Shown piece by piece: positions 1 to 56,378 of a DNA stretch of 64,000 nucleotides. The position numbers and the translations under genes are program-made. Below the pieces are notes generated by a model. The model did no database searches and was not told the DNA's origin. It was given only the letters and a program-made list of their open reading frames with translations. Within the stretch, counting starts at the first letter, position 1, and each line of letters starts with the position of its first letter. Origin of the DNA: Candidatus Poribacteria bacterium (GTDB taxonomy: Bacteria > Poribacteria > WGA-4E > WGA-3G); contig PYJC01000170.1 in NCBI GenBank assembly GCA_003635255.1, positions 2,500 through 66,499 on the forward strand, read 5' to 3'.

Positions 1-136
1 CGGGGATCGCACATTAGAAAGCCAAGATACCAAGCACGCTAACAGTCTTTTGATTGATGCACTTGACAAACAGATAATTGATGCAATCCAGAAACAGGTG
101 ATCCAAGCATTGATGAAACATATACACGTGTTCTGA
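1..136 (+). CDS. 3' end of an upstream gene (partial, C-terminus ...DALDKQIIDAIQKQVIQALMKHIHVF*)
   Basis: Open frame from the window edge to TGA at 134-136 with coding-like composition; no start codon in the window. Confidence 0.35.
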   Translation, partial: GDRTLESQDTKHANSLLIDALDKQIIDAIQKQVIQALMKHIHVF

Positions 137-144: not shown

Positions 145-173
145 TTGAAAATATCGAAAAATTGTGATATACT
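145..173 (+). promoter_or_regulatory. Sigma70-type promoter for the BMC operon (TTGAAA-17 nt-TATACT with a TG extended -10)
   Basis: ttgaaa at 145-150, 17-nt spacer, tgatatact at 168-173; AGGAGG RBS before the ATG at 307. Confidence 0.5.
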
Positions 174-306
174 TTAAAAAAAGGCGTGGTGTTTAGCATT
201 TCGCTTGACTTCTCTCTGTTTTTTGTTTTTGCGCGAGGCACCTTTTACCGCACAATTATTTTTAAGTCGAAAACCTACTTTCGTTTAGGAGGCTATTAGA
301 ATTAGT

Positions 307-582
307 ATGACCGGAGATGCATTGGGTTTAGTTGAAACGCGAGGTTTAGTTGGAAGCATTGAAGCCGCTGACACAATGGTGAAAGCGGCGAATGTCCAAC
401 TTCTCGGTTACGAACAAGTTGGTGGGGGTTACGTGACTGTCATGGTTCGTGGTGATGTCGGCGCGGTGAAAGCCGCAACGGATGCCGGTGCTGAAGCAGC
501 CGCACGCGTCGGAGAAGTTGTTTCTGTTCACGTAATTCCGCGTCCACATGCTGAAGTCGAAACTCTCTTAAAGAAAGCGTAA
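307..582 (+). CDS. Bacterial microcompartment shell protein, BMC-H (PduA/EutM/CcmK family, Pfam PF00936)
   Basis: 91 aa; [51 protein letters not shown] is the canonical BMC-domain signature; AGGAGG RBS. Confidence 0.9.
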
Positions 583-655
583 GCTATTCGTAAGTGAATA
601 ACCACACGTTGTCTAAGAACGTTTGGAACATCCTAAGAAAAAAGGCGAACCATAG

Positions 656-1360
656 ATGCCAAACCGTGACCTTGTTGAGTTGATTACCCGCCGTGTTGTG
701 AACAGACTAACGACCAACCAAGCATGTAGCGGATGTGCTTTGAGAAGTTGTGATGCCGGAAACCGCGCATGTGACGTTGTCACACAACAACAACAGATCC
801 CCGTTGGGGTCTCAGCACGGCATGCCCATGTAACGCAGGAACACCTTGAGATTCTTTACGGTGCCGGGCACCAACTCACCGTCTACGCGCCTCTTTATCA
901 ACCGGAAGCATTCGCTGCGAACGAAACACTTACCATCGTCGGAAAACGGATGCGGGCTATTGAAGCCGTTCGCATTCTCGGACCTGTCCGGGATTACTCC
1001 CAAGTCGAAGTGGCACAAACCGAAGCAATTCGGCTCGGGTTAAGTCCTCCGATTCGAGACTCAGGTGATCTTGCTGGTGCGGAACCTATTACCCTCATCG
1101 GGCCCGCAGGAAGCGTCTATTTAGAGGAGGGTGCTATCTGCGCCACACGGCACATCCACATGACACCAAGTGATGCTAAGGCACTCAATATTCGCGAAGA
1201 AGACCTTCTAAAGGTATATTTCCCCGGTGAGCGTGCTTTGACTTTTGAAAATGTTCGTCCGAAAATTGATGAAAGTTACGTGCTTCAGATGCACTTAGAC
1301 ACCGATGATTCCAATGCCGCAGGTTTGAAGGGCGGCGAACCTGTTGAAATTGTGCGTTAG
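656..1360 (+). CDS. pduL: PduL-type phosphate propanoyl/acetyl-transferase (two PF06130 repeats)
   Basis: Two repeats each carrying an RHxH motif (GVSARHAHVTQEHL and ICATRHIHMTPSDA); about 230 aa; the N-terminal DLVELITRRVVNRL resembles an encapsulation-peptide helix. Confidence 0.8.
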   Translation: MPNRDLVELITRRVVNRLTTNQACSGCALRSCDAGNRACDVVTQQQQIPVGVSARHAHVTQEHLEILYGAGHQLTVYAPLYQPEAFAANETLTIVGKRMRAIEAVRILGPVRDYSQVEVAQTEAIRLGLSPPIRDSGDLAGAEPITLIGPAGSVYLEEGAICATRHIHMTPSDAKALNIREEDLLKVYFPGERALTFENVRPKIDESYVLQMHLDTDDSNAAGLKGGEPVEIVR

Positions 1361-1382
1361 GTGTCCTACATTTTGAACCGAC

Positions 1383-2117
1383 ATGAACCAAGAATTGATC
1401 AATCAGATTCGGAAAATCGTGGAGCAGGTCCTGGAGGCACAAGTATCTACCGCGACGCAACTTGTAGACGAAAAACAACTACTTGCTATCTTTGGCGCGA
1501 CGCAACTTGAATTGGACGAACCGCTCCAGCAACTCAGCACCTGTATACAAGACGGATGGAAAATTACAATAATTCTGTCCGATCTCGCAACTAAAACTAT
1601 AAACTTTGAACCGATCTATGCCGCAGTGGGTGAAGAAAACGTCCTGCAGGAGAATGCACTAACCGATATAGCAACTTTTGTGGATACCTATCAACAAATT
1701 GTGCTTCCCGTTTTTTCGCATCCAATGGCTGCAAAACTCGCCTTAAGGCTTGTAGACACGCCGTGTACCTATCTCGTGTTTGAAGCTCTCTCTCAAGGAA
1801 AACAGGTCATAGCGGTCTCTGACGCACTGAATCAAGGCGAAACTACGAAAAAAATTAACAATATTGAAGTCGAATATGTAAACCTTTTGTCTGAACTTGG
1901 CGTTCAATGGGTACCTATGATGCAAATCGCCGAGTTAGTGACGAAGAAAATGAACGACTCGCCCGAGAGTTTAGACAAACCTCTGATTAGCGCAACGACT
2001 ATTTCAAATCTGGAGGCAAACGTACAGGAGTTGGTTCACGTAAAATCAGCGATTATTACACCACTTGCCCGTGAGCACGCCAAAAAGAGAGGTATTAAAC
2101 TGATACCTAAAAGTTAA
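1383..2117 (+). CDS. Hypothetical BMC-associated protein with an N-terminal encapsulation-peptide-like amphipathic helix
   Basis: 244 aa; N-terminus ELINQIRKIVEQVLEAQ matches the pattern of BMC targeting peptides; co-operonic with BMC-H and pduL; no recognisable catalytic motif. Confidence 0.5.
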   Translation: MNQELINQIRKIVEQVLEAQVSTATQLVDEKQLLAIFGATQLELDEPLQQLSTCIQDGWKITIILSDLATKTINFEPIYAAVGEENVLQENALTDIATFVDTYQQIVLPVFSHPMAAKLALRLVDTPCTYLVFEALSQGKQVIAVSDALNQGETTKKINNIEVEYVNLLSELGVQWVPMMQIAELVTKKMNDSPESLDKPLISATTISNLEANVQELVHVKSAIITPLAREHAKKRGIKLIPKS

Positions 2118-2201: not shown

Positions 2202-2355
2202 TCGGAACTATAGGTGAAAAAGATTGGAGTTATCGAAAGTATCAATTAACTTCGATTAATCCTTGACAATTTTTGCAGTCGGAACTATAGGTGAAAAAGA
2301 TTGGAGTTATCGAAAGTATCAATTAACTTCGATTAATCCTTGACAATTTTTGCAG
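2202..2355 (+). repeat. Perfect tandem duplication, 2 x 77 bp, each unit containing a TTGACA -35 box
   Basis: Unit tcggaactataggtgaaaaagattggagttatcgaaagtatcaattaacttcgattaatccttgacaatttttgcag at 2202-2278 and 2279-2355; the second copy is followed by a TATCAT -10 about 17 nt after TTGACA. Confidence 0.9.
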
Positions 2356-2481: not shown

Positions 2482-4161
2482 ATGAAAACCCGGATTTCGA
2501 TTTTAAGCGTAGTATGCCTCATCAGTTGTTTTGTAATCGCTGGGTTAGCAACCCCCGCGAATGCAGACCACGATTATTACGCAGACCGGCTGAGTCGCGA
2601 GCATCGCGTCGCAAGCGATGTTGATGAATGGATAGAGCGCGGGAACGCAACGATTACCGCCAGTCCCAGATTTGAGGATGGCGTTCGACTCACCGCCTGG
2701 GCAAGTGACACTCAGAACGCAGAAAACTACGAATTCGCAATTGCCAGCGCGGTATATCTTTTTGAAATTCCAGCAGGAACGCAGTATATTGAAGTTTTGG
2801 TGCGATACCGAGGCGAACCCCATCGACTCGAAATCGAAGATTACGATGAACCCATCGCCGGTCGCGCATGGATCCGCAATACTAAACGCGAGACAACACG
2901 TCGCGGCTATTACGACGAAAACGCTAAAGAGACACGTTACGGCGATACCTTTGTCCTCCGAGCAAAAAACCGCTCTGAACACATTAAGATCCCCGCCATC
3001 GGTCACGTCAAGGACGGATGGATGGAGCTGCATATTGTCGCTGAAGGTGGCGAACAGATTGACGTAGAATATCTTGAGGTCTCCACGTATCGTAGACAAC
3101 CGAAAGTTAGAGTGATTCAACGCTACACACCGACTTACCGGTGGCGCCCTTGGCACCGTTATACCTATCTTTACTTTTACGACGGTCCCATCTATTACGC
3201 GACGGACTACGACTACTATCTCCGATGGAGCTACCCCATCTACGATCACCACTATCTCTCAATCCGCTCGTATTACGGTGGGTACCTCGGACGCTACCGT
3301 GCCTACTATCCAAGTTCCTACTATCGCTGCTATTCACCATATTATTATAGCGGTTCAAGAAGTTACTACGGTGGTACGCCAAAAGTTTATCAGCGACGGA
3401 CGCAATTGAACCGGTGGAGTGCTAAGCATGAAACAACGCGCCGACAGTACAGTCGTAGCCGATTATCTGCTAACAATCAAAGCGGCAATCGAACAGCAGT
3501 ACGGAGAAGCGTCCGCACCACACTCGAAAATCATCGAAGACAGACACCTGCAACAACGGATCGGATTGCGCGCCAGTCTATTATCACGCAGAAACAGCGC
3601 GCCCGCGCTTCCACTTCAACGCTCCGCCAAAGCAAGGTAAGACAGAGCACTTACGCCTCCGAGAGCACAAGAAGTACAAGTACACTCAGTAAGCAGCGGC
3701 GTTACCCTGCGACTACAACACAAAGCGCGAACCGCTATAGCAGTTCAACACAGACACGACGGACGACGCCGCTTTATAGAAACTCAGCACAGACACAACG
3801 GACGACGCCGCTTTATAGACGTTCAACCTCTACTTCAAACCGATCGTTCTCGTCAAGCACAAGTAGTACCTCACGCCCGAAGTATAGAACCACTACTTCA
3901 AATTCGAGTTCGTCTCGCTCGCGATCAAGCATAAGCCGTTCATCCACAAGTTCATCGCGTGAGAGGTCAAGCGTGAGTCGTTCAAACTCGAGTTCAAGTT
4001 CGTCTCGTTCACGTACAAGTGTAAGCCGTTCTTCTTCCACAAAAACACGGACGCGTCCGACGACATCAAGCTCGAGTTCATCGCGTAGCAGCTCAAAGAG
4101 CAGCGACGATGACGATGACGATCGAAGCCGAACAACACAACGGACAAAACGGCGGCGTTAA
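2482..4161 (+). CDS. Secreted protein with a Tyr-rich segment and a long Ser/Arg/Thr-rich low-complexity C-terminus ending in D6
   Basis: GAAGGAG RBS 7 nt before the ATG at 2482; signal peptide MKTRISILSVVCLISCFVIAGLATPANA; YY-rich block; internal DNA repeats at 3760-3830 and 3900-4040; ends ...SSDDDDDDRSRTTQRTKRRR. Confidence 0.7.
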   Translation: MKTRISILSVVCLISCFVIAGLATPANADHDYYADRLSREHRVASDVDEWIERGNATITASPRFEDGVRLTAWASDTQNAENYEFAIASAVYLFEIPAGTQYIEVLVRYRGEPHRLEIEDYDEPIAGRAWIRNTKRETTRRGYYDENAKETRYGDTFVLRAKNRSEHIKIPAIGHVKDGWMELHIVAEGGEQIDVEYLEVSTYRRQPKVRVIQRYTPTYRWRPWHRYTYLYFYDGPIYYATDYDYYLRWSYPIYDHHYLSIRSYYGGYLGRYRAYYPSSYYRCYSPYYYSGSRSYYGGTPKVYQRRTQLNRWSAKHETTRRQYSRSRLSANNQSGNRTAVRRSVRTTLENHRRQTPATTDRIARQSIITQKQRARASTSTLRQSKVRQSTYASESTRSTSTLSKQRRYPATTTQSANRYSSSTQTRRTTPLYRNSAQTQRTTPLYRRSTSTSNRSFSSSTSSTSRPKYRTTTSNSSSSRSRSSISRSSTSSSRERSSVSRSNSSSSSSRSRTSVSRSSSTKTRTRPTTSSSSSSRSSSKSSDDDDDDRSRTTQRTKRRR

Positions 4162-4203
4162 TAGGAGTAGTACAATGGGTTTGGCACAACTTTTTTTCGA
4201 TGT

Positions 4204-4785
4204 GTGAAGCCCATATATCAAATGCGATTTTTGCTAATTATCTTATTACTGTTATTCAGCCTCCACGCCAGCTTTGCGCAGGAGGCTGAAAACAGCACAG
4301 AAGCCGAACAGCAAACGACAGAAACGGCGGAACAAGTTAAACTTGTTTCACCAATCGGTGCTATGGTGCGTTCTGCCGTTTTTCCGGGATGGGGACAGTT
4401 TTATAGTCGTAGTTACTTCCGAGGGAGCCTTACTGTCTTGGGAATAGGAGGTTCCGTTATCGGTGCTTTGTTGGCACAACAATCCTTTAGAAACCGGTAC
4501 GATGCTTATGAAGATCTGGTTTGGCAAGGTTTCCATAGTGAAGAAACAGTATTAGAAAGTTACGAGTATGCAAACCAGAGGTATAAACTCAGGACATTTT
4601 TTATGTATACTGGCATCGGTATTTGGCTTTATAGCCTTATCGATTCTTATGTGAGTGCCAACTTTCATAACGCAACTACCCTGATTCAGTCTATTGAACA
4701 GGATGTACAAGATTCCGAAAAATTTGGGATTGAAATGAGTGCAACCCCTTCACGTCTTTATTTTGGTATTGTTAAAACTTTTTGA
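4204..4785 (+). CDS. Exported or membrane protein with a PGWGQFY motif (DUF5683-like, name uncertain)
   Basis: GTG at 4204 or ATG at 4222; hydrophobic N-terminus and a later TM segment; motif VFPGWGQFYSRSY. Confidence 0.45.
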   Translation: MKPIYQMRFLLIILLLLFSLHASFAQEAENSTEAEQQTTETAEQVKLVSPIGAMVRSAVFPGWGQFYSRSYFRGSLTVLGIGGSVIGALLAQQSFRNRYDAYEDLVWQGFHSEETVLESYEYANQRYKLRTFFMYTGIGIWLYSLIDSYVSANFHNATTLIQSIEQDVQDSEKFGIEMSATPSRLYFGIVKTF

Positions 4786-4803
4786 AACGGGAGAGTGTTT
4801 ATT

Positions 4804-5373
4804 ATGTCCAAAACTTTTGCAAAAGTCAGCAGTGTCCTCATCTTACTCATCTTACTAGTAAGTTTTATGGGGTGTGGAGACGCTGATAAAGTCGGAGAAA
4901 TTCCAACTGAAGAACTCCTTCAAATTAGTAACGTCTTAGATCGATGGCGGGAAGGTTATGAAACAGAAGATGTTAACACCTACATTAACACCTTCTGGGA
5001 AGATGGCTTCCTTTATGTTTCGGATATGGGAACAGACGGCGATAAAACAGACGATGTAGAATTTGATGACATTCGGCAGGAACGAGCTGCCGCGACTCGG
5101 GTCTTTGAACGGTTTCAGGATATTGAGATAGAACTCTCTTCTCCGCCGGAAATTCAGATGAATGAAGATGGCACAGAGGCGGAAGTACGGAACCACTATA
5201 GAATCCAGTTTTTTGTATCAGATGGTCAAACGCTTGAAGGTGGATATACCGGGGCATACGCCGAAGGAGATAACCTCTTTATCTTTGAAAAAAGAAACGA
5301 GGAATGGCGCATAGCCGAGTGGCATGACGAAGCCTTTAACGAAGAAGAAATTCGCATTGCCAATAACTTATAG
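4804..5373 (+). CDS. Lipoprotein with an NTF2/SnoaL-like (DUF4440-like) fold
   Basis: Lipobox LVSFMGC; about 190 aa, acidic; the W/F/Y pattern is typical of NTF2-like proteins. Confidence 0.5.
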   Translation: MSKTFAKVSSVLILLILLVSFMGCGDADKVGEIPTEELLQISNVLDRWREGYETEDVNTYINTFWEDGFLYVSDMGTDGDKTDDVEFDDIRQERAAATRVFERFQDIEIELSSPPEIQMNEDGTEAEVRNHYRIQFFVSDGQTLEGGYTGAYAEGDNLFIFEKRNEEWRIAEWHDEAFNEEEIRIANNL

Positions 5374-5433
5374 GTTTAAGAATAAGGAGGGGCAATTTCT
5401 AGCCCAAGGGGCGGGCAGAAATACTGTACATTC

Positions 5434-6849
5434 ATGCCGCAACAGGAGGAACATCTACGTGATTATCTTCAACTCATCCGAAAGCATGACTTTACGATCT
5501 GCCTCAGTGTCCTACTGGTATTAGGAACCGCTCTCATTATCTCGCTCCGTCTACCTAAAACCTATGCCGCTTCAACCTTAATGTTATTCGTCCAACCCAG
5601 TGCTACATCTTCCCTGTCTTCCGCAAGCCTGTTTCAAAATGTCCTCTCTGGTGGTGTTGATCGACGAGAAATGGAAACAATCAGCACCCGATTTTCTACA
5701 GATTCAATGCTAAATATAGCAATCGAGAACCTTGAGGAGAATGGGCATGCAGAAGCAGTGACCCTTTTCCCACCAGTAGGTAAACTCAAACGAATGCTGA
5801 AGGCACAAGTCAACCCAGACTCCGATTATATTCATCTTTCGCTTGCCTTGGCTGAGGCAGAAGGTGGTGAACGGAATGCAGCACTCCTTGTCAACCAACT
5901 CGCAAGCGATATGCAAATGTTGCGACGTAGAGATAAAGAAACGAAACTCAAAAAACGCGTGGAGCTCATCGGAGATAAACAACAACAAGTCATATCGAAA
6001 TTGGAGAAAGAATCAGACGAACTGCTCAAATTCGTTCGCGAAAATGGAAGCCCAGAAACATGGGTGCCTATTCTGACTAATTTGCTCGAACGCCATGCCA
6101 ATGTCCAAGAAAAAATTGCGGTCAATCAACAGCAACTTTATGCAACGCGCGCCTATATTACACATCTACAAGACCAACTAAATCACTTACCTAAACAAGA
6201 ACAATTATCCGAAACCACTTCCCATAACCCCGTCTGGCTTTTTCAGCAGGAAAAACTCTTCAATCTTGAATCGCAGCGCGTCGCGGATAGAAAAAAAGTA
6301 GGTGCGAATCCATCAAAATTAGAAGGTCTCAACGCACAAATTGACGAAATAGAGAAAAAAAACAAGGATACCTCCCCTATAACTACCACCGCCACTGCCG
6401 GCATCTCCGCACATTATACCTATATACAGAATCAGTTAACAACATCTCTCCCCACCCTCTCAAGTTATGAAAATGCCGAAGAACACCTCAAACGGGAACT
6501 TGATAGCATAAAAACCCAACTGGCAAGGCTATTAATAGAGATCCCCGAAAACCATACGATCCTTACACAAATACAAACCAAGATTCAGAAAATGAATCTG
6601 GTCGCTGAAGAAATTGCTAAACGGTCACTTGAAGCAGAAATATTATATGCCGAATCTAAACTGCCAACCTCTCGTAATCAGATAGGTGGTATTGAAGTCA
6701 TCGACCGCGCCGCACCAAAGAAAATTCCTGTCACCCCGCAACTTAAACTTATTTTTCTTATCGCAGGAATCGCTGGTTTAACTTTAGGTGTTACAGCGGC
6801 TTTGTTCATCGAATATTTTAATAGGACTGTTGTGAACTTAAAAAACTGA
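5434..6849 (+). CDS. wzz: Polysaccharide co-polymerase / chain-length determinant (Wzz/GumC family, no kinase domain)
   Basis: N-terminal TM after the RKHDF region, a long coiled-coil periplasmic region and a C-terminal TM LIFLIAGIAGLTLGVTAALFIEYF; PCP topology. Confidence 0.65.
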   Translation: MPQQEEHLRDYLQLIRKHDFTICLSVLLVLGTALIISLRLPKTYAASTLMLFVQPSATSSLSSASLFQNVLSGGVDRREMETISTRFSTDSMLNIAIENLEENGHAEAVTLFPPVGKLKRMLKAQVNPDSDYIHLSLALAEAEGGERNAALLVNQLASDMQMLRRRDKETKLKKRVELIGDKQQQVISKLEKESDELLKFVRENGSPETWVPILTNLLERHANVQEKIAVNQQQLYATRAYITHLQDQLNHLPKQEQLSETTSHNPVWLFQQEKLFNLESQRVADRKKVGANPSKLEGLNAQIDEIEKKNKDTSPITTTATAGISAHYTYIQNQLTTSLPTLSSYENAEEHLKRELDSIKTQLARLLIEIPENHTILTQIQTKIQKMNLVAEEIAKRSLEAEILYAESKLPTSRNQIGGIEVIDRAAPKKIPVTPQLKLIFLIAGIAGLTLGVTAALFIEYFNRTVVNLKN

Positions 6850-6871
6850 ACATCCCATTCGGAAATATTTA

Positions 6872-6900
6872 AAGCCTCGATTTCGGTTCGAGGCTTTATT
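6872..6900 (+). terminator. Rho-independent terminator after wzz
   Basis: aaagcctcg-atttcggtt-cgaggcttt hairpin followed by an AT-rich run. Confidence 0.6.
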
Positions 6901-7328
6901 AATTTGATAACTTTGTAAAAAAAATGTCAATTTTTCTTAAAATGTAGTATAATATATATTACGCCCGTTGGCATTGTGAGGGTTCATAAATTTATAGCAA
7001 GGCTAGTCGATATTCTTGACTGATGCCTAAGAAAAAACTGATTCGTTATGAGTTGCTGCTGTTTTCAGGGAAACAGTAAATGGCACAAACTACCCACATA
7101 TTAAGGATATATCTCTGTTAGTGTTGCCGCCATTAGCACAATATCAGAAAAAATGTATAAGTAGATCATTTCCAGATTGCTACTTATCCTTAAAAAACAA
7201 AACGGGCGAAAAATCGAAAATGAATAGTACTGATATTAAACTTGAATATTAAACTTGAAAATATATTACGTTTGTGGTATGTTTATTTGAAATTCCACTC
7301 CAATGCGTGTGTTTTTTCTGTTAAAAAC

Positions 7329-7357
7329 TTGACAGAAATTCAAATCGGTGCTATTTT
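7329..7357 (+). promoter_or_regulatory. Candidate promoter (TTGACA-17 nt-TATTTT) giving a roughly 340-nt leader for the 7705 gene
   Basis: ttgacagaaattcaaatcggtgctatttt lies in an 850-bp AT-rich noncoding region. Confidence 0.3.
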
Positions 7358-7704
7358 AGATGCTTAAGAACAGTTTTACAGGCATTTTATTTCACATTTA
7401 TTGTAAATTTCTGTAAAACAAACCCTTAATTTGTTGGAAGGAGACTCGCTTTTTATACGCTTCGCGCGATATTCGCAATTTACGGAATATCCGTCCGGTA
7501 GTGACGAAAAGTAAAAAAATTGAACAAGTGTTACTTTATAACTAACGCAATTTTGGCACCTTTCGTTTACACGCAAAGCGGTTTTCATCCATTTCAAGGT
7601 TTTTGTCGGAAACCCAGGTAAGAGCGCGAATGACGAAATATTCGTGTCGCCGCTCGGTTACCTAAACATCCGATTCATTATCTCCAAGGAGGAAAAACAA
7701 AATA

Positions 7705-10700
7705 ATGAACAGGCTAAAACAATCAATTGATGTTTTACTTGTAGCGACCTGTATCCTGAGCGCTTTTGTGCTTTACGGTTGTGGGGCACAAAGCCTTGGT
7801 CCACAAGAACCCCTATTGCCAACGATTGAGGGGAGTTCTAAATTCTCAGCGCGTTTCCAGTTAGAAGAAGAACCCCAATTCTTCTATGACCTGTTTGGAA
7901 AAGAGCTGCTTGAAGGTAACGAGGTCTACAACTATCGCGAGCAGAAAGAGTTTGACCAGAACGGTGAATTGTTTGTTGGTTGGACAGGACAGCTGGATAG
8001 TGAAAGATTCTCGGCACAGCTCGATAGAACGGTCTTAACTGAAGACAGTTACCGTGGAAGATACACCGAATTTGCTATTGGCGACCATTTGCGCTTCAAG
8101 CCATCTACGTTATTCCCGAACCGTTACATCCTCTACAAAACAGAATTTGACGGACTTCGATGGGATATCTCTTTCGCGCAGGAGCGGCACCTTTTCACGC
8201 TTATCAATTCCCGTATTTCAAACCCCGTCCAATTGACAGATGCAGCGGCGAACCTCGCACCAACGCTCGGTCGTCGGAACGGTCTGAATGAGGACGCAGG
8301 CGTACGGCATATTGAAAACGCACGCCTCGTGGGTTTCCGAGCACAAGGGCTTTTAGGCGACATCTTCCGTGTCGGGTTCACTTATGTCAATCTTCATAAA
8401 GAACACCCGGAACGTGTTGAAAACCCACTCATGGGTACCGTAGCAAATACACCACCAGAATCAATCACAGTTGTCTTCCGCGATGATTCGCCCGAAGATA
8501 ATCATGGAACTGTCACCGTATTCTCAGGTTACGACCCGACATTACATGGCGATAATATTCAGGGCGGTGTCGGTGCAGCTTTCAAAACTATGAAAGTTAC
8601 AATTGTCACCCAAGGCTTGGAAGAGTTAACACCTGAAGACATTGAGGAAGGGGTCGAACCTAAGGCACTCCCTTCGGAAACCATAACTGAAACCCTGGAC
8701 GGCAGTAATGTAATCGCGATGCCTGTCGGTGGACTTCCTTCTGATATCCGAGATTCTGAAGATGGAGACGGGTGGAAAATCGTGGACGGCTTCAATAAGA
8801 TGAAAGTTGTTCTCGTTTTTGTGGATCCAGATGGTGCACCTTCTCCCGATGTCGCACAACTCCTTTCAGAAGGGGCATACCAAATTGATGCTGATCCCCG
8901 CACGGTTCAATCCGTCACCTTTGAGATGGTTGTAGCGGGCGATTATAACATTGCTATTATTGGAAACAGCCCTGCAAACAAAGCCGAATCAGACCCGGAA
9001 ATCCAAGAGTGGATTAAAACCGAAGATGGCCACATCCAGATGCCCTACCGTGATATTATTGAAGCACCCGGCAACTATGGGCAATCCTCAGATTACACCA
9101 GCAACCGAGCATCACTCAAAGACAAACCGAGTGAATGGACCGGTGAAGGTAGACCGCGTAAAGTCCGTTATCAATACGGTGCAGCACGCGCAGCACTCCT
9201 CTACGGGCTTGACTTAGAAGGCACTATCGGCAACGTTTTTGTCCGAGCTCACTATTCCATTAACGGTAAATATAAGCAATATCCCACCATTCCCAAAGAG
9301 CAGATTGGATTTAGCCGGCTCAAAACGACCATCCTAAGCGAAGATGGCGAAGAAGAAACCGGTATTTCCATCGACCCCGCAACAGGATTACCCTTAGATG
9401 CAAACGGAGTCCCCACATACTCTGAAACCGAGGGTGAACGATTTGAAGCCATGTTAGGTGGCGACGGAACCGATGAAAGCGGCGACGGAACAATGGGTAG
9501 AGAAACCGCATGGTTCGTCCAACTCAAATCTCGATTCGGGAAACTGTATCTTGAAGGGGTCTATTATCATATCGATCCCGGATACACAACAACCTATCTC
9601 AACTTCGGTTCTAATACTGATAGGGATCAGGAATACTCCTTAGAGCGGACACCCGCATCACAGGCAGAACAAGATCCATGGGATGAAGTCAATTACGCCC
9701 TCATTGAAGATGATGATGATGATGACGACTGGCCCGATGATGACGACTTCGACGGAGTCTTACCACGCGCTGATGACAGAGACCAGAACGGCGTTTTGGA
9801 TTTCCAAGAAGACTTCCTCATCTTTGATGCTGATCCGCCGGTCTTCACCGACCTTGTTGATCTGAACAACAACGGTACAATTGATTCTCTTGAGGACGAT
9901 TTTGAACCGCAGTATGAGTACGGAATAGACAGGGAAGGCTACCACGTTTTCGCCGAATATGACCTCCTTGATAACCTTTCACTTAAAGTCGGATGGCTTA
10001 ATGAAAACGAGGTCTCAAGTCGCCGGAAAAATGATTCCAAATACCTACATGTCACCTATCAGCGTGACATTCCAGACTTTGGAACAGTCCTCTTCCAAAA
10101 CCGATTTGTCCGAGTTCAAGACGATATCCCGGACTATACCATTACATTGCGTGTCGGTGAATTGGAACCCGTCCAAATTTCCGACGAACTTGATTTCTAC
10201 AATGCTCGTGTGAATACCACAACACTTCAGTTCCTTTATACCGCTGTTCCCAACCTCACACTTGAAGCCAAATTCCTCGTTGTACTGCAAAAACAGTTTG
10301 AGCAGGATGAGGAAGGGGCAATCTTCCTTGATGTTGAGGGATCAGGAGACGAAGGCGATCCACTCAACGCCGATCAACGTGTTGACTTTATGGTCCCCGT
10401 TGAACAGGTTCGGGCTGGTGGTGAAAGACGGGAATTCCCGTTCTATCCAGACCACGGGATTAACGCACTGGATCCCGAGGATCCCGGCTTAATCTATGAC
10501 CCCGAAAACTGGAAAAAGCGGCGTTATCCGGAACGCGATATTCGCAACCAGCAGACAATTCTCAAGGCGAGATACGAGATCCCACTCGGTGAACTCCCGT
10601 TCGTTGACAGAATCGGTGAAGATTTAACACTCACACCGATGGCGAAGTACATCTGGGATCGCGCATTTGACCGAGCATCTGAGGAAATTGGCGAAGCACT

Positions 10701-11085
10701 CAACCCACGTCAGTTCGTGCCTACTGATATCGAACCCGTCGAATACTTACGCTTCAATCGTAGAAGTCGTGAAGATGTACTCGGCGTACGGCTTGACTAT
10801 CAGTTCTCGCAAAGGATGAATATTCTTGGCGGTTTCCAATACCGGAAATTCACCAACCGGGATAATAATTTCAAAAATTATTTGACAAACTTCCCGGAAG
10901 ATGAAGATGTACCAGTCCTCTATCGACCGGACTTGAGAACTCGAATCTTTGAAGTTCAAGCGATCAACCGCGGTGAATGGCTTGGGTTCAACATCGTCAT
11001 CCTTGCTGGTTACCGGCGAACCACTATCTTGCTTGATCACACGACGAGTAACACTACCTTCGTGCGAGCAATGATGGGTTTCTAA
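7705..11085 (+). CDS. Large outer-membrane lipoprotein, predicted beta-barrel, with acidic thrombospondin-type-3/EF-hand-like calcium-binding repeats
   Basis: AGGAGG RBS; lipobox LYGC; D-rich blocks DDDDDDDWPDDDDFDG, DDRDQNGVLDF and DLNNNGTIDSLEDD; C-terminal ...VRAMMGF ends in Phe, as in OM beta-barrel signatures. Confidence 0.6.
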   Translation: MNRLKQSIDVLLVATCILSAFVLYGCGAQSLGPQEPLLPTIEGSSKFSARFQLEEEPQFFYDLFGKELLEGNEVYNYREQKEFDQNGELFVGWTGQLDSERFSAQLDRTVLTEDSYRGRYTEFAIGDHLRFKPSTLFPNRYILYKTEFDGLRWDISFAQERHLFTLINSRISNPVQLTDAAANLAPTLGRRNGLNEDAGVRHIENARLVGFRAQGLLGDIFRVGFTYVNLHKEHPERVENPLMGTVANTPPESITVVFRDDSPEDNHGTVTVFSGYDPTLHGDNIQGGVGAAFKTMKVTIVTQGLEELTPEDIEEGVEPKALPSETITETLDGSNVIAMPVGGLPSDIRDSEDGDGWKIVDGFNKMKVVLVFVDPDGAPSPDVAQLLSEGAYQIDADPRTVQSVTFEMVVAGDYNIAIIGNSPANKAESDPEIQEWIKTEDGHIQMPYRDIIEAPGNYGQSSDYTSNRASLKDKPSEWTGEGRPRKVRYQYGAARAALLYGLDLEGTIGNVFVRAHYSINGKYKQYPTIPKEQIGFSRLKTTILSEDGEEETGISIDPATGLPLDANGVPTYSETEGERFEAMLGGDGTDESGDGTMGRETAWFVQLKSRFGKLYLEGVYYHIDPGYTTTYLNFGSNTDRDQEYSLERTPASQAEQDPWDEVNYALIEDDDDDDDWPDDDDFDGVLPRADDRDQNGVLDFQEDFLIFDADPPVFTDLVDLNNNGTIDSLEDDFEPQYEYGIDREGYHVFAEYDLLDNLSLKVGWLNENEVSSRRKNDSKYLHVTYQRDIPDFGTVLFQNRFVRVQDDIPDYTITLRVGELEPVQISDELDFYNARVNTTTLQFLYTAVPNLTLEAKFLVVLQKQFEQDEEGAIFLDVEGSGDEGDPLNADQRVDFMVPVEQVRAGGERREFPFYPDHGINALDPEDPGLIYDPENWKKRRYPERDIRNQQTILKARYEIPLGELPFVDRIGEDLTLTPMAKYIWDRAFDRASEEIGEALNPRQFVPTDIEPVEYLRFNRRSREDVLGVRLDYQFSQRMNILGGFQYRKFTNRDNNFKNYLTNFPEDEDVPVLYRPDLRTRIFEVQAINRGEWLGFNIVILAGYRRTTILLDHTTSNTTFVRAMMGF

Positions 11086-11096
11086 ATGTTTTGTGT

Positions 11097-11129
11097 ATCG
11101 CTGGACACAACCTCGTGTCCAGCGATACC
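11097..11129 (+). terminator. Perfect 13-bp stem-loop immediately after the stop of the 7705 gene
   Basis: tatcgctggacac-aacctc-gtgtccagcgata. Confidence 0.5.
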
Positions 11130-11428
11130 GCGTTCAGTAATATCACCTATAATACCATTTTTTCTAACGCTTGCATAAAGCGCGTAACTTCTTAAGGACT
11201 CAAGTGTTTTTAATAGAAATGGTGTTATAACCCGTAAGGGCGATCTACAGATATAGACTTTAACTCCCAACCAGAAGAACCGTGTAGATGAAACACTCAC
11301 GTGTTAGTAAAATAAAATTAAGGTGTTAAGGTACGGTTTTCGTGCTTTATTTATACAACACTTTATGAGATGACTTGTAGTAACTTGCCAACACAATCGG
11401 CAAGTTAACCTAAGGAGGATCAGAACGA

Positions 11429-12427
11429 ATGATTCGTTTTAGTTTCGTTTTAATGCTAATTGCTTGTGTCGGTATGTCTACTGGCATCGCTTTTGCGCAA
11501 GATGATGCAAGTGGTGGAACCGTCCGAGGCAATATTGTTGACACAACCACAGCACAGAACCCGATTCCAGAGGTTCAGGTCAAGATCGTTGCTACAGGCG
11601 GGGAAGAATATGAGGCAATGACAGATGCCAATGGCGAATATGAAAAAACTGGTGTCCCCGCGGGCCGCTACCTTATCAGTATTTATAGAGAAGGATATGG
11701 CGACCGGCTCGGAAAACCTGTCACAGTCGTTAATGGCGGTGATCACTTCGTACCGCTCAAGATGACCAAAAAGGATAACATTGTTACCTTCTTCCAGAAG
11801 TTTGGATTCGTCTTCTGGCCACTCGCCCTCTGCTCTATCACGGCGTTAACCTTCATTATTGAAAGACTTTTCACCTTTGTCCGGAGTCGTTCCCGAATCG
11901 GAACTGAACAGTTCATCGCCAGTATCGCAGACTCATTGCGAAAAGAGAACATTATGGAAGCCGTCTCGACTTGTGAAGAAGCCGGCGGTCCACTTGCCAA
12001 TGTCCTTAAAGCCGGGTTACTGCGATACAGCCAAGCCCAGATCGAGGAACGCGATATTAGCAAAGAAGAAATTCAGGAAGCCATTGAGGAAGCAAGCCTG
12101 CTTGAAATCCCCGAACTGGAAAGAAATTTGCCGGTTCTCGGTACAGTCGCTGTTGTTTCGCCGCTGTTCGGTTTGCTCGGAACGGTTACAGGTATGATTA
12201 GTGCGTTTACCACAATCGCACTCGAAGGTACCGGTGACCCGCAGCAGCTCGCAGGTGGTATCTCACAGGCACTCCTCACAACTGCTGCTGGCTTGACAGT
12301 TGCTATCCCATGTTTGATTTTCTTCCAACTTTTTGATAGCTGGGTCAACAGACACATGGTTGAAATTTCACAGGTTTCTACCGAAATTGTCAATCAACTG
12401 ATTGTTGGTGAATCTGGCAACGCCTAA
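11429..12427 (+). CDS. exbB: ExbB/TolQ/MotA-family proton channel with an N-terminal signal peptide and a carboxypeptidase-regulatory-like (CarbopepD_reg) domain
   Basis: AGGAGG RBS; MotA_ExbB core ...VLGTVAVVSPLFGLLGTVTGMISAF...AGGISQALLTTAAGLTVAIP; the N-terminal roughly 110 aa beta-sandwich-like segment VRGNIVDTT...GRYLISIYREGYG. Confidence 0.8.
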   Translation: MIRFSFVLMLIACVGMSTGIAFAQDDASGGTVRGNIVDTTTAQNPIPEVQVKIVATGGEEYEAMTDANGEYEKTGVPAGRYLISIYREGYGDRLGKPVTVVNGGDHFVPLKMTKKDNIVTFFQKFGFVFWPLALCSITALTFIIERLFTFVRSRSRIGTEQFIASIADSLRKENIMEAVSTCEEAGGPLANVLKAGLLRYSQAQIEERDISKEEIQEAIEEASLLEIPELERNLPVLGTVAVVSPLFGLLGTVTGMISAFTTIALEGTGDPQQLAGGISQALLTTAAGLTVAIPCLIFFQLFDSWVNRHMVEISQVSTEIVNQLIVGESGNA

Positions 12428-12537
12428 CCTTGGAACAGAACGGCGGGTGATTTACACCCGCCTCTCCAATAGGTTTGTAGGGTGTTAGGTTCTCGAACCG
12501 CAGCCCTGGTCTCATTAACGAGAAAGGAGACTTTGAA

Positions 12538-12987
12538 ATGCAACAAGTCGGTGAAGCCAAATTGAGCCTGCTTGCAACCAAAATCAGGGAACGTAAGCCA
12601 CCAACGCTCAGTATGGCACCTATGATTGATTGTGTATTCCTGCTCCTGATTTTCTTCATGGTGTCAACAACCTTCTCGCCGATTCCCGGACTCCGGGTGC
12701 AGCTTCCCCCACCAGGGAAACCCTCGCCCGACAAACCGAAAGGGTTGACAGTCCGAATCGCGAACCCAGAACCCGGTGAGGATAGAGGCACTATGGTGTT
12801 GAACGATGCCGTTGTCCAGGTTGATGAAATGTTCAACCAGTTTATCAATGCACCGGACGAGGCAACGAACATGCTCATTATCCAATCCGAGCGGGAAGTA
12901 CTCCATGAACAGATCGTGCAGGTGATGGATATCGCAAAACAGGCAGGTATAGATAAAATCGGATTCGCTATCGTCGCAAGAGACTGA
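12538..12987 (+). CDS. exbD: ExbD/TolR biopolymer transport protein (paralog 1)
   Basis: LSMAPMIDCVFLLLIFFMVSTTF TM anchor; ExbD fold; about 150 aa. Confidence 0.85.
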   Translation: MQQVGEAKLSLLATKIRERKPPTLSMAPMIDCVFLLLIFFMVSTTFSPIPGLRVQLPPPGKPSPDKPKGLTVRIANPEPGEDRGTMVLNDAVVQVDEMFNQFINAPDEATNMLIIQSEREVLHEQIVQVMDIAKQAGIDKIGFAIVARD

Positions 12988-13039
12988 CAGTCCCACGCGA
13001 CAGCAGTAGTAATCTAATTTCTATAGAAGGAGAATTCTC

Positions 13040-13462
13040 ATGGCTTTAAACTTGGCTAAACGGCGGAAAAGAGAGGACGAGGACGACATTCCGATGGCAC
13101 CTATGATTGATTGTGTGTTCTTGTTGCTCATCTTCTTCATGGTATCTGCTGTCATGAAGGTTCCTCCGCCTTTTACTGTCACCTTACCCGATTCTGCAAC
13201 GAAGCACGAATTTACGCGAAAGAAATTCAACCTTTTCATTAACAGTGACGGACGTATTTCAATTGATGACCAAGAAATGCTAACACTGGAAGACATGGAA
13301 CTTTTCATCGCAGCACATGAAAACCAGATTACTACCTTGATTATCAAAGCAGACAAACGTGCCAAGCACGGGGATGTCATTGACGTGGTAGAACGAGCGA
13401 AAATGCGTTCCAGTAAAACGGAAGGGCTTGAAATCGCTTTCGCGGTGTCAGAAGAAGACTGA
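13040..13462 (+). CDS. exbD: ExbD/TolR biopolymer transport protein (paralog 2, divergent)
   Basis: PMAPMIDCVFLLLIFFMVSAV anchor; 140 aa. Confidence 0.85.
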   Translation: MALNLAKRRKREDEDDIPMAPMIDCVFLLLIFFMVSAVMKVPPPFTVTLPDSATKHEFTRKKFNLFINSDGRISIDDQEMLTLEDMELFIAAHENQITTLIIKADKRAKHGDVIDVVERAKMRSSKTEGLEIAFAVSEED

Positions 13463-23385: not shown

Positions 23386-24537
23386 TCACTCCTCACTTTG
23401 AGACTTCTCTTTTGAACGCTCAGGATCTATTGCATACTCATAAAATCCATAAAGAATAGTGTTACGATAATATCTAAAGAACAAATGGTAAAGATGAACA
23501 AATATAGGACATAAACTCGCACTAACGCAATAGCACACAAATAAGTTGTTCAAATCCAGAGTATCCCCAATAGGAATTCTTGTTGGTATGCCTCCAATAA
23601 TTAGATTGCTGTAACTGGCACTATAGTCAATTTTGAATTCAAGACAAAATCCTGCTATTAAACCAAGCACTACTATAACTATTCCATAAGAAAGTCCTAA
23701 ACGAATTTCTTTCTTCGTCGTATTTTCATTGTTTTTTTTACAGTCTTCTCGATTTTCATTTTTACTTTGTGTCCAAAGTTTTTTTATACGACTCCAAATA
23801 TTTTTTTCAAGCCAAAGAAAAAACTTTCCTACAATAATCAAGCAAGAGCAAAGAAACCCAACAGCAAAAATAGGAACTATGACTACTATCCACATGTTTT
23901 GAAATAATTTCTCAGAAATAACTATTCTCAGAGAAAAGCCAACAGCTGCTAAACAAAAAATGACTGCTAACAACTTGGCAGAATTGTATAGAGACAGGAG
24001 CCGAGAAGCTCTTGGATAGAGATATGGACTGTGCTTCATGAAACTTGTACGACAGAGATGGAAAATTTCCGTATACTTTACATCTGTCTTAACGTCTGCA
24101 GCTTCGCATTGTATCTTTGATACTTTAATGTCAAAGACTTTTCTAATCTGGTATCTCAATTTATGCACAAATTGGTCCGAATACGGATAATAATCTTCAG
24201 GATACGATCTACATTCAAAGTCGAATAACTCCTTTTCAAACACCCCGTGATCTGAATAATATCTTTTGAAAGGATCCCATATAGTTGAAAAAACTCTAAA
24301 CATCCAATTAATAAACCCATGACTCGCGAGACCAACAACATAACAAGCAACCACATAGAAAATTCCTTGGGTTATCGTAGGACGCAGATACTTTGGCAAT
24401 TCGTCATCGGTACTCTTGAGTTGATCTATTAAATCCGTCGGTAATGTCGGATTTATCAGAATAGTTCCGACAATTATTATCATCAAACCGGGTAGACTAT
24501 AACCCAAAAAATCATAAACTCCAAATGAAAATTTCAT
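23386..24537 (-). CDS. Polytopic membrane protein of unknown function, markedly AT-rich
   Basis: GGAGA RBS before the ATG at 24537; at least 8 predicted TM helices; codon usage and GC clearly lower than the flanks; 20 nt downstream of the methyltransferase gene. Confidence 0.6.
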   Translation of the reverse strand: MKFSFGVYDFLGYSLPGLMIIIVGTILINPTLPTDLIDQLKSTDDELPKYLRPTITQGIFYVVACYVVGLASHGFINWMFRVFSTIWDPFKRYYSDHGVFEKELFDFECRSYPEDYYPYSDQFVHKLRYQIRKVFDIKVSKIQCEAADVKTDVKYTEIFHLCRTSFMKHSPYLYPRASRLLSLYNSAKLLAVIFCLAAVGFSLRIVISEKLFQNMWIVVIVPIFAVGFLCSCLIIVGKFFLWLEKNIWSRIKKLWTQSKNENREDCKKNNENTTKKEIRLGLSYGIVIVVLGLIAGFCLEFKIDYSASYSNLIIGGIPTRIPIGDTLDLNNLFVCYCVSASLCPIFVHLYHLFFRYYRNTILYGFYEYAIDPERSKEKSQSEE

Positions 24538-24572
24538 CAAATTTGTCTCCAATAAACGAATTCAACCGTCTC

Positions 24573-27500: not shown

Positions 27501-27728
27501 AATTCCAAGTGTGGGTTGACTGGGAGGGAATGGTGGTAGCTGCCAGTAGTCACCAATCCGATCTTGCGTCAATTCATCAAGATCAAGCTCTTCAGCAGAT
27601 AAAGAATAGGCTACGTCTTCAAATTCAACGTCTTCGGGGATGTGCCAACCGAATTTCTCGCGCAGAAAGTCTAAGAGGGTGTCAAAGTCATGGATGTTGT
27701 GAATATCGTTTGGTGTTATGTGGGGCAT
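24573..27728 (-). CDS. Gamma-class N6-adenine DNA methyltransferase (Eco57I/PglX/type IIG-like) with a roughly 330-aa N-terminal domain and a C-terminal putative target-recognition region
   Basis: Motif I ICDPACGSGAYLLG precedes motif IV IVGNPPYV; 1051 aa. Confidence 0.85.
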   Translation of the reverse strand: MPHITPNDIHNIHDFDTLLDFLREKFGWHIPEDVEFEDVAYSLSAEELDLDELTQDRIGDYWQLPPFPPSQPTLGIFEDTQPWGIFFLQFNSEDIYRTALRRVLRGLVERRDRNSSLPTWKHDHLLFICTTTDFQRFAFAHFASNENWRRAVLSIFSWEQGDTHIRTLCEYNLPALAFPSDGFSDDKAWLKAWQEAFDVEAVTDKFFADYQRVFAQVEKAVKGIPEDETEARRLYTQRLFNRLMFLRFIEKKGWLTYNGNRDYLRVLFDATESGTDENFLNDRLYWAFFHGLGNAADQPEESSAAVERRGGVPFLNGGLFEMQKDDVQNAVHIPNDKFAEILELFERYNFTVTESTPLDIEVAVDPEMLGKVFEELVTGRHDTGSYYTPRPVVSFMCRESLKICLQNKTDETPEILQAFIDDGDATKIRNPERVLQVLQTLRICDPACGSGAYLLGMMGELLRLREALFQSNQIDSPIIYQRKLDIIQKNLYGVDKDEFAVNIAMLRLWLSLAVDYEGDTPEPLPNLDYKVAAGDSLTGPAPEQIGLEADLIQQIQEHQAEYLVTHTDPEKQRLREVIAELKESLQGWQANADVFVWQVEFSEVFQEGGFDIIVGNPPYVRQENIIPIKPVLEQLFPEVFTGTADLYVYFYKRGAELLRTGGVLSYISSNNFLRVAYGKKLRSFFTNRVKLHRLLDFGNVPVFKAHVDTCILLAESAPPADKAFFAATFRDKADIPRLSEAFREKSFSMDSRDLSPDGWALTSSEVLRLLARLQQIGTPLEEYVDGGFYMGVKTGCNDAFIIDKPVCQKLIAENARSGELIKPVLRGRNLRRWKANSTNEYLIVIASSANREWPWSDARNTSEAEQIFAETYPAVYNHLKGYRDQLIARGDQGMFYWELRSCVYYAEFKKPKVIYPQTAKALYGCYDTAGTFGLNNVYFIPTRDLSLLAVLNSRLFDWYARHKFYNLNDPWEGGRLQFFAQYMEKVPIADRTAAQKAELSRLVEQILAAPESDGVRDIEQKIDELVYQLYGLTDAEVELIKQTYQDAGMEV

Positions 27729-27743
27729 TCGGTAGTTTCCAAA

Positions 27744-28148
27744 TCAGGTGGAATGTGATTCAGAGACTGGCTCTGTGCTTGTCTCTAACGGCGCGTTTGA
27801 TGGCGTTAAGTGTTCACTTGCGAGTTCGCTGCTATTCCCCTCTGCTAATAGCGGTTCGATTGAGAGCTGCCATCCAAGTGCCTTGAGAACGGCATTCAGG
27901 GTACCAAGATGCAGTGGGTCTCCGCTGTATAGAAATTCTGAGAGGACTTTCGGGGTGATGCCGGCTTGCTTGGCAATTTTGGAAGTCCCGCCTTGGGCTT
28001 CTACAACATTCCGGATCCCCTTTAGAAAAAAGGGTGTGTCTCCATCAACAAGATATTCTTCCAATGAAACCTGGAGGTAACTCATCGCTTCCTCTCGGTT
28101 AGCGAGTTTTTCAATTAGGAATTCGTGCCATGTTGTTAGTTTTTCCAT
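27744..28148 (-). CDS. higA: HigA-type antitoxin (addiction-module antidote protein with HTH, TIGR02684-like)
   Basis: ...FLKGIRNVVEAQGGTSKIAKQAGITPKVLSEFL HTH; overlaps the higB stop by about 13 nt. Confidence 0.7.
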   Translation of the reverse strand: MEKLTTWHEFLIEKLANREEAMSYLQVSLEEYLVDGDTPFFLKGIRNVVEAQGGTSKIAKQAGITPKVLSEFLYSGDPLHLGTLNAVLKALGWQLSIEPLLAEGNSSELASEHLTPSNAPLETSTEPVSESHST

Positions 28149-28483: not shown

Positions 28484-28611
28484 TGATAATATCTTGTTCT
28501 TATCCAAGCGATATATTTCTAAAGTATATCACAAGTTCGGCAGAAAATCAAAGGGTGATGTGAGAAAAGTCGGGATTATAAACCCCTCCCACAAGTATTA
28601 GATAGATGGTT

Positions 28612-29181: not shown

Positions 29182-29215
29182 TTCGTTGCTATAGTCTCCT
29201 TGTCGGAAATTGATT

Positions 29216-51100: not shown

Positions 51101-51233
51101 ACCCTAATTATACCACATAAAAACAGATTTATCAAGTTTTATCTATATTTATCAAGTTTTAGAAGTGTTTAGGAACTGCTCCTCAATACTACAGTCGGCT
51201 TCGATCATAGGCGCGTTCTCTTAATTTTGCTGA

Positions 51234-56375: not shown

Positions 56376-56378
56376 GTT

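Follow-up and report, generated by a model that had tools for sequence, protein, structure and literature searches.

A PduM-like protein with a flavoprotein fold in the satellite-like BMC-A cluster of Poribacteria

What does a bacterial microcompartment (BMC) gene cluster with a single shell gene contribute to the cell that carries it, and what is the role of the protein encoded at its end? The question is raised by a 64,000-nucleotide stretch of contig PYJC01000170.1 from a Candidatus Poribacteria bacterium, a lineage of sponge symbionts; the whole stretch that was analysed is referred to below as the window. Three genes near its start, all on the forward strand, encode a BMC-H shell protein (307-582), a PduL-type phosphotransacylase (656-1360) and a 244-amino acid protein (1383-2117). 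An earlier reading made from the letters alone (the sequence-only reading) had delimited these three genes and named the first two; an open reading frame (ORF) check of the window reproduced all three frames, and the BMC-H and PduL identities were confirmed by matches to PF00936 and PF06130. The 244-amino acid protein, which is identical to protein C6499_20665 of a Candidatus Poribacteria metagenome-assembled genome (MAG), is a divergent member of a widespread microcompartment family with a flavoprotein fold and, judged by profile comparison, a remote homologue of the enterobacterial protein PduM.

The locus itself has a published history. Kamke et al. 2014 (PMC3909097) described a poribacterial BMC-A genomic region in which the genes for a shell protein and PduL are followed by hypothetical and exopolysaccharide genes. 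Jahn et al. 2016 (PMC5087111) reported that BMC-H is highly transcribed in sponge metatranscriptomes and shares one polycistron with PduL, found the BMC-H immunolabel near the cell membrane and proposed a 1,2-propanediol metabolism. Axen et al. 2014 (PMC4207490) assigned every poribacterial locus to a 'satellite-like' class and recorded PduL or an aldehyde dehydrogenase in several of them. The trio proteins of the window are 96% (BMC-H), 91% (PduL) and 76% (244-amino acid protein) identical to those on a contig of single-amplified genome (SAG) WGA-3G (L027), and the cluster corresponds by orthology to the BMC-A region of these papers. Both the locus and its satellite-like character were on record in 2014-2016, and the novelty lies solely in placing the third protein in a family. 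When species-representative genomes were scanned with a single protein as query, orthologues turned up in 27 Poribacteria species, and all matches were poribacterial. The idea that the trio is a non-functional remnant was rejected, since it is kept in these 27 species and transcribed.

Family, fold and kin of the third protein

No Pfam or NCBIfam family scored above its curated cut-off with the 244-amino acid protein, and the weak matches were to TIGR02536 ('eut_hyp', 6.5e-7), PduM (0.006) and the EutQ N-terminus (0.047). An exhaustive phmmer search over 1.84 billion cluster representatives returned 240 clusters at 50% identity with E<=1e-3, nearly all of them matching over their full length of 220-300 amino acids. 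When the query was aligned with 49 diverse members (alignment A1, n = 50), 43 of the 50 sequences matched the PF02441 Flavoprotein model (best 1.2e-14) and 49 matched TIGR02536 (best 1.9e-16); the PduM model was matched by 24 (best 7.4e-6) and the EutQ model by three. The query itself gave no match to PF02441 at E<=1, even though 43 of its 50 relatives do match. It also falls short of TIGR02536, with 29.2 bits against a cut-off of 152.6 and over residues 133-240 only, a cut-off that none of the 50 A1 members reaches, judged from their best E-value of 1.9e-16. The protein is placed as a divergent member of a widespread family of ~250-290 amino acids from microcompartment loci.

An AlphaFold2 (AF2) model of the protein (pLDDT 90.8) shows a helix at residues 3-27, a Rossmann-like domain at 32-191 and a small beta-alpha domain at 201-243, with low-confidence linkers after the N-terminal helix (pLDDT 64) and before the C-terminal domain. 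Foldseek matched the model to UbiX (E 8e-7, TM ~0.6) as well as to EpiD, AtHAL3 and DmrB; these matches to HFCD flavoproteins span E-values from 8e-7 to 1e-4 and target TM-scores of 0.52-0.72, and the family profile run against PDB sequences found EpiD at 3.7e-7. Residues 32-191 (1476-1955) thus have the HFCD flavoprotein fold of the EpiD/UbiX/AtHAL3/DmrB type. Structure prediction and profile-profile comparison, which the sequence-only reading had named as the way to place its unknown protein, have done so: they give an HFCD fold, homology to PduM and EutQ, and an N-terminal helix that is an extension of the fold.

The flavin motifs of this domain are degenerate. The family consensus reads FTGG, LSxxA and PxLTxNxAAKxAxGIxDT. 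The 244-amino acid protein has FGAT in place of FTGG, keeps LSDLA, and has PVFSHPMAAKLALRLVDT, in which PVFSHP stands for PxLTxN and AAKxA…D(T) is retained. Because of the FGAT and PVFSHP substitutions, flavin binding by this protein is doubtful.

Profile-profile comparison connects the family to two known microcompartment proteins. Alignment A1 aligned by hhalign with 14 enterobacterial PduM sequences over 108 columns (94.4%, E 9.5e-8), such that PduM residues 54-162 fall on the second half of the Rossmann-like domain and on the C-terminal beta-alpha module. This module (residues 199-243, …IITPLAREHAKKRGIKL; 1977-2111, forward strand), in which T226 and A229 are invariant across A1, also aligned with residues 2-52 of E. 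coli EutQ (93.7%, E 1.9e-7; hhalign) and is common to the PduM C-terminus and the EutQ N-terminus. The profiles make the 244-amino acid protein a remote homologue of PduM that lies outside the PduM family by the curated cut-offs. PduM in turn appears to be a shortened relative of the widespread flavoprotein-fold family, one that also shares a module with EutQ. This link runs against a 2025 study in which PduM is said to have no known homologues outside Pdu compartments. In the searchable literature we found no statement that connects the long flavoprotein-fold proteins with PduM and the N-terminus of EutQ.

Gene order leads to the same proteins. In five PDU operons of other bacteria, including Pelosinus and a Sporomusaceae MAG, a family member lies directly after pduL or after pduL and a EutJ-like gene; pduN follows downstream in four of the five and pduO in the fifth (L004). 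E. coli pduM occupies the same slot. The gene in this slot is annotated 'pduM' in the pdu operons of Listeria and Limosilactobacillus reuteri, so that annotators may be aware of the positional equivalence. The poribacterial gene is likewise directly 3' of pduL, without a pduN following. Another family member is found in a locus with a class II aldolase, two BMC-H, three BMC-P and an aldehyde dehydrogenase, and yet another in a second BMC-H/PduL triad. Because members occur in PDU operons and in other BMC loci, the family is an accessory of several microcompartment types, usually paired with PduL. On one JGI metagenome contig (L013, 5146-8341), a member with a clear PF02441 match comes after PduL and a radical-SAM/SPASM gene; the surrounding ~7-10 kb contain no shell gene, genes for Fe-ADH, PfkB and DeoC are nearby, and the system may be of a sugar-phosphate type.

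The N-terminal helix (residues 3-27; 1389-1463, forward strand) is followed by a variable linker and is a candidate encapsulation peptide. Such a peptide had been suggested from its amphipathic pattern, and the suggestion stood up to measurement: residues 3-16 have a hydrophobic moment of 0.73, which makes them the most amphipathic 14-residue window of the protein and is equalled by one in 1000 shuffled sequences. Among 120 poribacterial homologues, the mean entropy is 0.42 for residues 3-20 and 1.15 for the linker (21-31), compared with 0.43 for the C-terminal module and 0.58 for the core. Across the family the consensus keeps an LxxxIxxEVxxxL pattern in this helix. For HFCD flavoproteins that do not belong to microcompartments, the alignment begins only at about profile position 29-47 (chain residues 6-17), at the first beta-strand, which is why the helix is regarded as an extension. 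By sequence and model, the N-terminus thus has the usual attributes of an encapsulation peptide, namely an amphipathic helix, a variable linker and absence outside microcompartments. For PduM, experiments have verified residues 1-23 as a signal sequence that brings GFP to the Pdu core, and without PduM the core and the shell come apart in part (2025 study). By analogy, the 244-amino acid protein would be encapsulated as well.

Transcription, shell complement and neighbourhood of the cluster

The trio is preceded by a sigma-70-like promoter at 145-173 on the forward strand (TTGAAA-17-TATACT, with an upstream TG that makes an extended -10), which scores 10/12 in a consensus scan. The -35 box (CTTGAA) and the extended -10 box (TGTGATATACT) show little or no variation in 11 Poribacteria loci, in contrast to the flanks; this conservation is stronger evidence for a promoter than the consensus match alone, and it is in line with the earlier call of a strong promoter. 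The 5' leader (174-306, forward strand) ends in an AGGAGG ribosome-binding site that is invariant in the alignment. The 127-nt leader gave no Rfam match at E<=1 to a riboswitch or other known RNA. A block 3' of the promoter, GTGTTTAGCATTTCGCTTGAC (183-250), is partly conserved in most aligned Poribacteria loci and could be an operator or leader element.

Expression values are available for the orthologous genes. In the supplementary table of Jahn et al. 2016 (PMC5087111), the mean fragments per kilobase per million (FPKM) in SAG 3G are 1047 for BMC-H, 324 for PduL, 205 for the 735-nt orthologue of the 244-amino acid protein gene and 883 for the next gene. The drop across the trio followed by a rise is consistent with a three-gene unit, and the gradient of 1047/324/205 fits a low-abundance third product. 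No forward-strand terminator-like site was found after 2117. The next gene has a promoter-like site of its own at 2340-2368 (TTGACA-17-TATCAT, 11/12), and this site together with the FPKM fall and jump agrees with the proposal that the first promoter serves only three genes. The TTGACA box of the second site lies within a 77-bp exact tandem duplication in the intergenic region (2202-2355, forward strand; TRF 2.0 copies, 100% match). The 77-bp element is single-copy in the near-identical assemblies L001 and L002 (~99.8% identity), and the duplication is either a strain polymorphism or an assembly artefact.

The first gene of the trio encodes a PduA/PduJ/EutM-like BMC-H protein of 91 amino acids (PF00936, 2.7e-31). 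Its score of 107.8 bits against a gathering threshold of 24.5 corresponds to a single BMC domain, and it is 65, 68 and 72% identical to E. coli EutM, PduA and PduJ, respectively. The tiling residues K26 and R79 are invariant with respect to these three proteins, as are K55 and D59, and BMC-H is 87-97% identical across most of the 27 Poribacteria species with the gene on the contig. The 234-amino acid PduL has a full-length PTAC domain (PF06130, 1.9e-65, residues 49-225; 220.4 bits against 25, profile positions 1-176) and scores 228.1 bits against the cut-off of 209 for NCBIfam NF011652, phosphate propanoyltransferase. It begins with an extension of 48 residues that includes an encapsulation-peptide-like helix at residues 5-18 (DLVELITRRVVNRL; 668-709, forward strand), the pattern of which resembles the N-termini of the E. 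coli and Pelosinus PduL proteins. The sequence-only reading had assigned PduL an encapsulation peptide too. The conservation of the pattern in all Poribacteria PduL sequences speaks for this assignment, but the hydrophobic moment of 0.52 is not significant alone, being reached by 38% of shuffled sequences. Between the helix and the catalytic domain lies a Cx2Cx4Cx6C insert (residues 24-39; 725-772, forward strand), which could be a metal-binding or redox element. Its four Cys residues are kept in all Poribacteria loci examined, including the deep lineages L006, L009 and L012, and the insert is absent from PduL of E. coli, Pelosinus and L013.

Other shell genes were sought around the cluster. 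A tblastn search with queries from other BMC loci found no BMC-P, PduN or aldehyde dehydrogenase in the 64-kb window, and a screen with approximate EutN, PduN and CcmL queries found no BMC-P in the window plus 10 kb upstream. The window and these 10 kb likewise have no second BMC-H, and no signature enzyme is encoded near the trio, in the window or in the 27 species. Nor was a BMC-P, a second BMC-H or an aldehyde dehydrogenase present within 10 kb of the trio in the 27 Poribacteria species, so that the absence of vertex protein and aldehyde dehydrogenase noted earlier for the locus extends to these species. Axen et al. 2014 define a satellite locus as a contiguous one with only PF00936 or only PF03319 and at least one main BMC locus elsewhere in the genome. 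A single BMC-H and an insufficient shell complement, as found in the window and within 10 kb of the trio in the 27 species, support a shell-poor, satellite-like microcompartment locus. The second part of the definition is more problematic. SAGs 3G and 4E each encode three PF03319 (BMC-P) genes, two in tandem and the third alone at another locus; the PF00936 genes, one or two in number, lie apart from the BMC-P loci (Kamke et al. 2014, PMC3909097). The literature reports only such scattered, shell-poor further loci for Poribacteria, for which reason Axen et al. spoke of 'satellite-like' loci, and a larger main BMC locus elsewhere in the genome is doubtful. The view of the trio as a satellite of a larger system is thus retained for its shell-poor, satellite-like character, with the main locus that it presupposes in doubt; the scattered BMC-H and the BMC-P triplet would resemble microcompartments of the FRAG type more than a main locus with a satellite.

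Downstream of the trio lies a conserved envelope block (2482-13462, forward strand), a neighbour whose operon membership is not implied. Its genes, by Pfam, encode a Tyr-rich protein, a DUF5683 protein, a SnoaL_4 protein, a Wzz/GNVR protein, a 1126-amino acid protein without a Pfam match, an ExbB with a CarboxypepD_reg domain and two ExbD proteins. The first protein of the block (559 amino acids) looks secreted: its N-terminus is like a signal peptide, it has a Tyr-rich region, and its Ser/Thr/Arg-rich tail ends in DDDDDD; a 39-bp tandem repeat in this tail (3745-3819; 1.9 copies, 94% match) encodes a repeated TQRTTPLYR-type peptide. The block matches the published BMC-A region, and its order is conserved in the 27 Poribacteria species and in deep lineages whose PduM-like proteins are only 29-39% identical. 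In one marine-metagenome lineage (L009/L010, 1-1326), no BMC-H lies immediately upstream of the PduL and PduM-like genes and the rest of the block is kept. On a Poribacteria chromosome (OZ244821.1; L041, 4847-9274), ~4.4 kb between BMC-H and PduL split the trio, an insert with several forward-strand ORFs of up to 616 amino acids, some of them lipoprotein-like.

The rest of the window encodes unrelated functions, including glutamate synthase, gamma-glutamyltranspeptidase, SAM-cycle enzymes, ribosomal protein S1, a two-component system, TnpB, a NACHT NTPase, and restriction-modification and other defence-type genes. Two stretches are of a defence/mobile type. One (23386-32266) carries an Eco57I/MmeI-type methylase-endonuclease (1051 amino acids) and an SNF2/PLD helicase (1016 amino acids), and the other (49366-58499) a TnpB-like protein (529 amino acids), a NACHT NTPase (758 amino acids) and an HSDR_N/N6_Mtase fusion (706 amino acids); the GC content dips to ~0.40-0.42 near both. 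The gene upstream of the trio (window 2-136; L001 7945-8745) encodes a 266-amino acid TPR protein that is anchored by an N-terminal transmembrane helix and whose C-terminal tail is amphipathic in this genome. That tail was considered as a C-terminal encapsulation peptide or membrane tether and rejected, since it is wholly different between Poribacteria species.

A proposed core-to-shell tether and its alternatives

On balance, the BMC-A cluster is probably a satellite-like piece of a fragmented metabolosome, and the 244-amino acid protein a PduM-like tether between its core and its shell. In such a scheme the conserved promoter would transcribe the three genes together, with BMC-H supplying the shell facets. 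PduL, brought in by its targeting-type N-terminal helix, would regenerate free CoA from acyl-CoA inside the metabolosome, and the vertex proteins and aldehyde dehydrogenase would be encoded elsewhere. Like PduM in Salmonella, the 244-amino acid protein would be a structural component, present in small amounts, that links the cargo core with the shell. Its amphipathic helix may insert it into the core and its C-terminal module may bind BMC-H, by analogy with EutQ, in which residues 1-100 are required for binding of the BMC-H protein EutM. HFCD proteins are typically trimers or dodecamers, and the degenerate flavoprotein-fold domain might provide oligomerisation and valency rather than redox chemistry. 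The sequence-only reading had offered the protein as a candidate new cargo or assembly factor. With a widespread family and the pduM slot it is no longer a family-less new cargo, but a PduM-like assembly role, which we infer from these likenesses, is the most likely part for it to play.

Several observations weigh against this assignment. The curated PduM cut-offs are missed by a wide margin (TIGR04493, 16.4 against 50 bits; PF15953, 13.9 against 27), and the homology to PduM is limited to the second half of the 244-amino acid protein. A Foldseek search with the AF2 model of E. coli PduM, itself weak (pLDDT 72, with the C-terminal 45 residues below 50), gave a best E-value of 0.2, which is not significant; HFCD proteins recur among its weak hits. 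Binding of EutM has been mapped only to EutQ residues 1-100, not to the module that is shared. The other parts of the metabolosome are known indirectly, poribacterial BMC-P from the SAG literature and aldehyde dehydrogenase only from the statement of Axen et al. (PMC4207490) on Poribacteria and BRC1. The deep lineage L009 has PduL and the PduM-like gene but no adjacent BMC-H. In the immunolabelling of Jahn et al. 2016 (PMC5087111), the BMC-H signal appeared at the cell membrane and not as cytoplasmic polyhedra. Finally, most family members keep recognisable flavoprotein motifs, so that a redox role of the family is possible.

The last of these points leads to an explanation in which the 244-amino acid protein would be an active encapsulated flavoenzyme or electron shuttle, for example in lumenal redox cofactor recycling. 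Its fold is that of the FMN-binding HFCD proteins, the family consensus keeps TGG, LSxxA and PxLTxNxAAKxAxGIxD, and 43 of 50 relatives match PF02441. Axen et al. 2014 (PMC4207490) observed that flavin families, PF02441 included, are frequent in BMC loci, and suggested a redox role. It is in the poribacterial clade that this explanation falters, where the motifs have decayed to FGAT and PVFSHP. The active-site His of EpiD falls in an insertion relative to the family profile, and the best-conserved segments are the two terminal modules and not the core. PduM argues in the same direction: at 160 amino acids it aligns to half of the Rossmann-like domain and is too short for the whole, yet it functions in assembly, and for this reason the role of the family need not involve flavin. 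An active flavoenzyme is therefore unlikely.

The membrane signal suggests a different departure from the tether in a closed metabolosome, namely that no closed organelle is formed and that BMC-H makes membrane-proximal sheets which work with the envelope block, as Jahn et al. 2016 (PMC5087111) proposed. Both BMC-H and ExbD were immunolabelled at the cell membrane in that study. The common order of trio and envelope block in the 27 species and the deep lineages is what such a partnership would predict, the PduM-like gene of L009 overlaps both of its neighbouring genes, which suggests translational coupling, and a single BMC-H with no BMC-P near the cluster would suit a sheet. The syntenic lineages, however, are apparently all Poribacteria or close relatives, and shared ancestry may explain the synteny; outside this group the family occurs in ordinary BMC operons without envelope genes. 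A separate promoter-like site precedes the next gene, whose expression is 4.3-fold higher, the downstream proteins are signal-peptide-like or of membrane type whereas the trio is cytoplasmic, and Poribacteria are not devoid of BMC-P, with three such genes (Kamke et al. 2014, PMC3909097). We give these sheets a low probability. Those same BMC-P genes, carried elsewhere in poribacterial genomes, also count against the trio as a minimal microcompartment that is sufficient in itself and independent of any other locus. In favour of that view are the compactness of the operon, its own conserved promoter and the ability of some BMC-H proteins to self-assemble alone. The cluster nevertheless contains no BMC-P to close the vertices, and PduL needs an aldehyde dehydrogenase that produces acyl-CoA, according to the metabolosome core model of Axen et al. 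2014 (PMC4207490). This possibility is highly improbable.

Parts of these accounts can be combined. PduM-like proteins might be an ancient, HFCD-derived family of core-to-shell tethers that spans BMC types, with enterobacterial PduM as a truncated offshoot and with an N-terminal encapsulation helix, an oligomerising flavoprotein-fold body and an EutQ-type shell-binding module as the shared parts. In Poribacteria, the tether, the single BMC-H and the Cys4 PduL might then form a constitutive membrane-proximal module, co-inherited and functionally coupled with the ExbB/ExbD and exopolysaccharide-type block, in place of a free polyhedral organelle. As a whole this combination is quite unlikely. 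The kinship of PduM with the widespread flavoprotein-fold family and with EutQ would, if it holds, offer a testable model of how cores are tied to shells across many compartment types, with the targeting helix and the shell-binding module as candidate parts for engineering. The assignment provides an annotation for a BMC-A gene that has so far been 'hypothetical', in a region discussed for a decade as evidence for a poribacterial compartment, and it sharpens the question of what the scattered poribacterial shell genes build.

Comparison with known systems

The closest counterpart of the cluster is the published BMC-A region, which has the same order of BMC-H, PduL, a hypothetical gene, a further hypothetical gene, exopolysaccharide-type genes, ExbB and ExbD; the window comes from another species or MAG. 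In the BMC-A publications the gene for the 244-amino acid protein was left as a 'hypothetical protein', and its family, fold and kinship with PduM and EutQ are absent there. The FRAG microcompartments of Sutter et al. 2021 (PMC8217296) share with it the scattered shell genes, the BMC-P triplet, the few proximal enzymes and an occurrence in candidate phyla. The main text of that paper does not name Poribacteria, and the likeness derives from the SAG literature.

Compared with the HFCD flavoproteins (EpiD, Dfp/CoaC, AtHAL3, UbiX, DmrB/AfpA and DpaB), the 244-amino acid protein has the same fold over residues 32-191 at 9-17% sequence identity. Neither the N-terminal helix nor the C-terminal module is present in the HFCD proteins. 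The 244-amino acid protein, for its part, has degenerate flavin motifs and no residue aligned with the catalytic His of the cysteine decarboxylases. The 'flavoprotein' (PF02441) genes in the PDU loci of Negativicutes and Firmicutes and the TIGR02536 proteins have the same three-part architecture at a length of 245-273 amino acids. The PDU flavoproteins adjoin pduL and align over their full length at 21-25% identity. They keep FTGG and LTxN and stand in complete PDU loci, whereas the poribacterial clade has degenerate motifs and an isolated triad.

EutQ of E. coli and Salmonella shares only a part, with its residues 2-52 homologous to the module at ~199-243. In EutQ this module is N-terminal and followed by a cupin domain; the 244-amino acid protein has no EutQ-type cupin. 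PduM of Salmonella and E. coli (TIGR04493, PF15953) is likewise encoded directly after pduL and begins with an amphipathic helix, has a homologous C-terminal module and second half of the body, and both proteins are apparently low-expression products. At 160-163 amino acids, PduM differs in being too short for a complete Rossmann-like domain.

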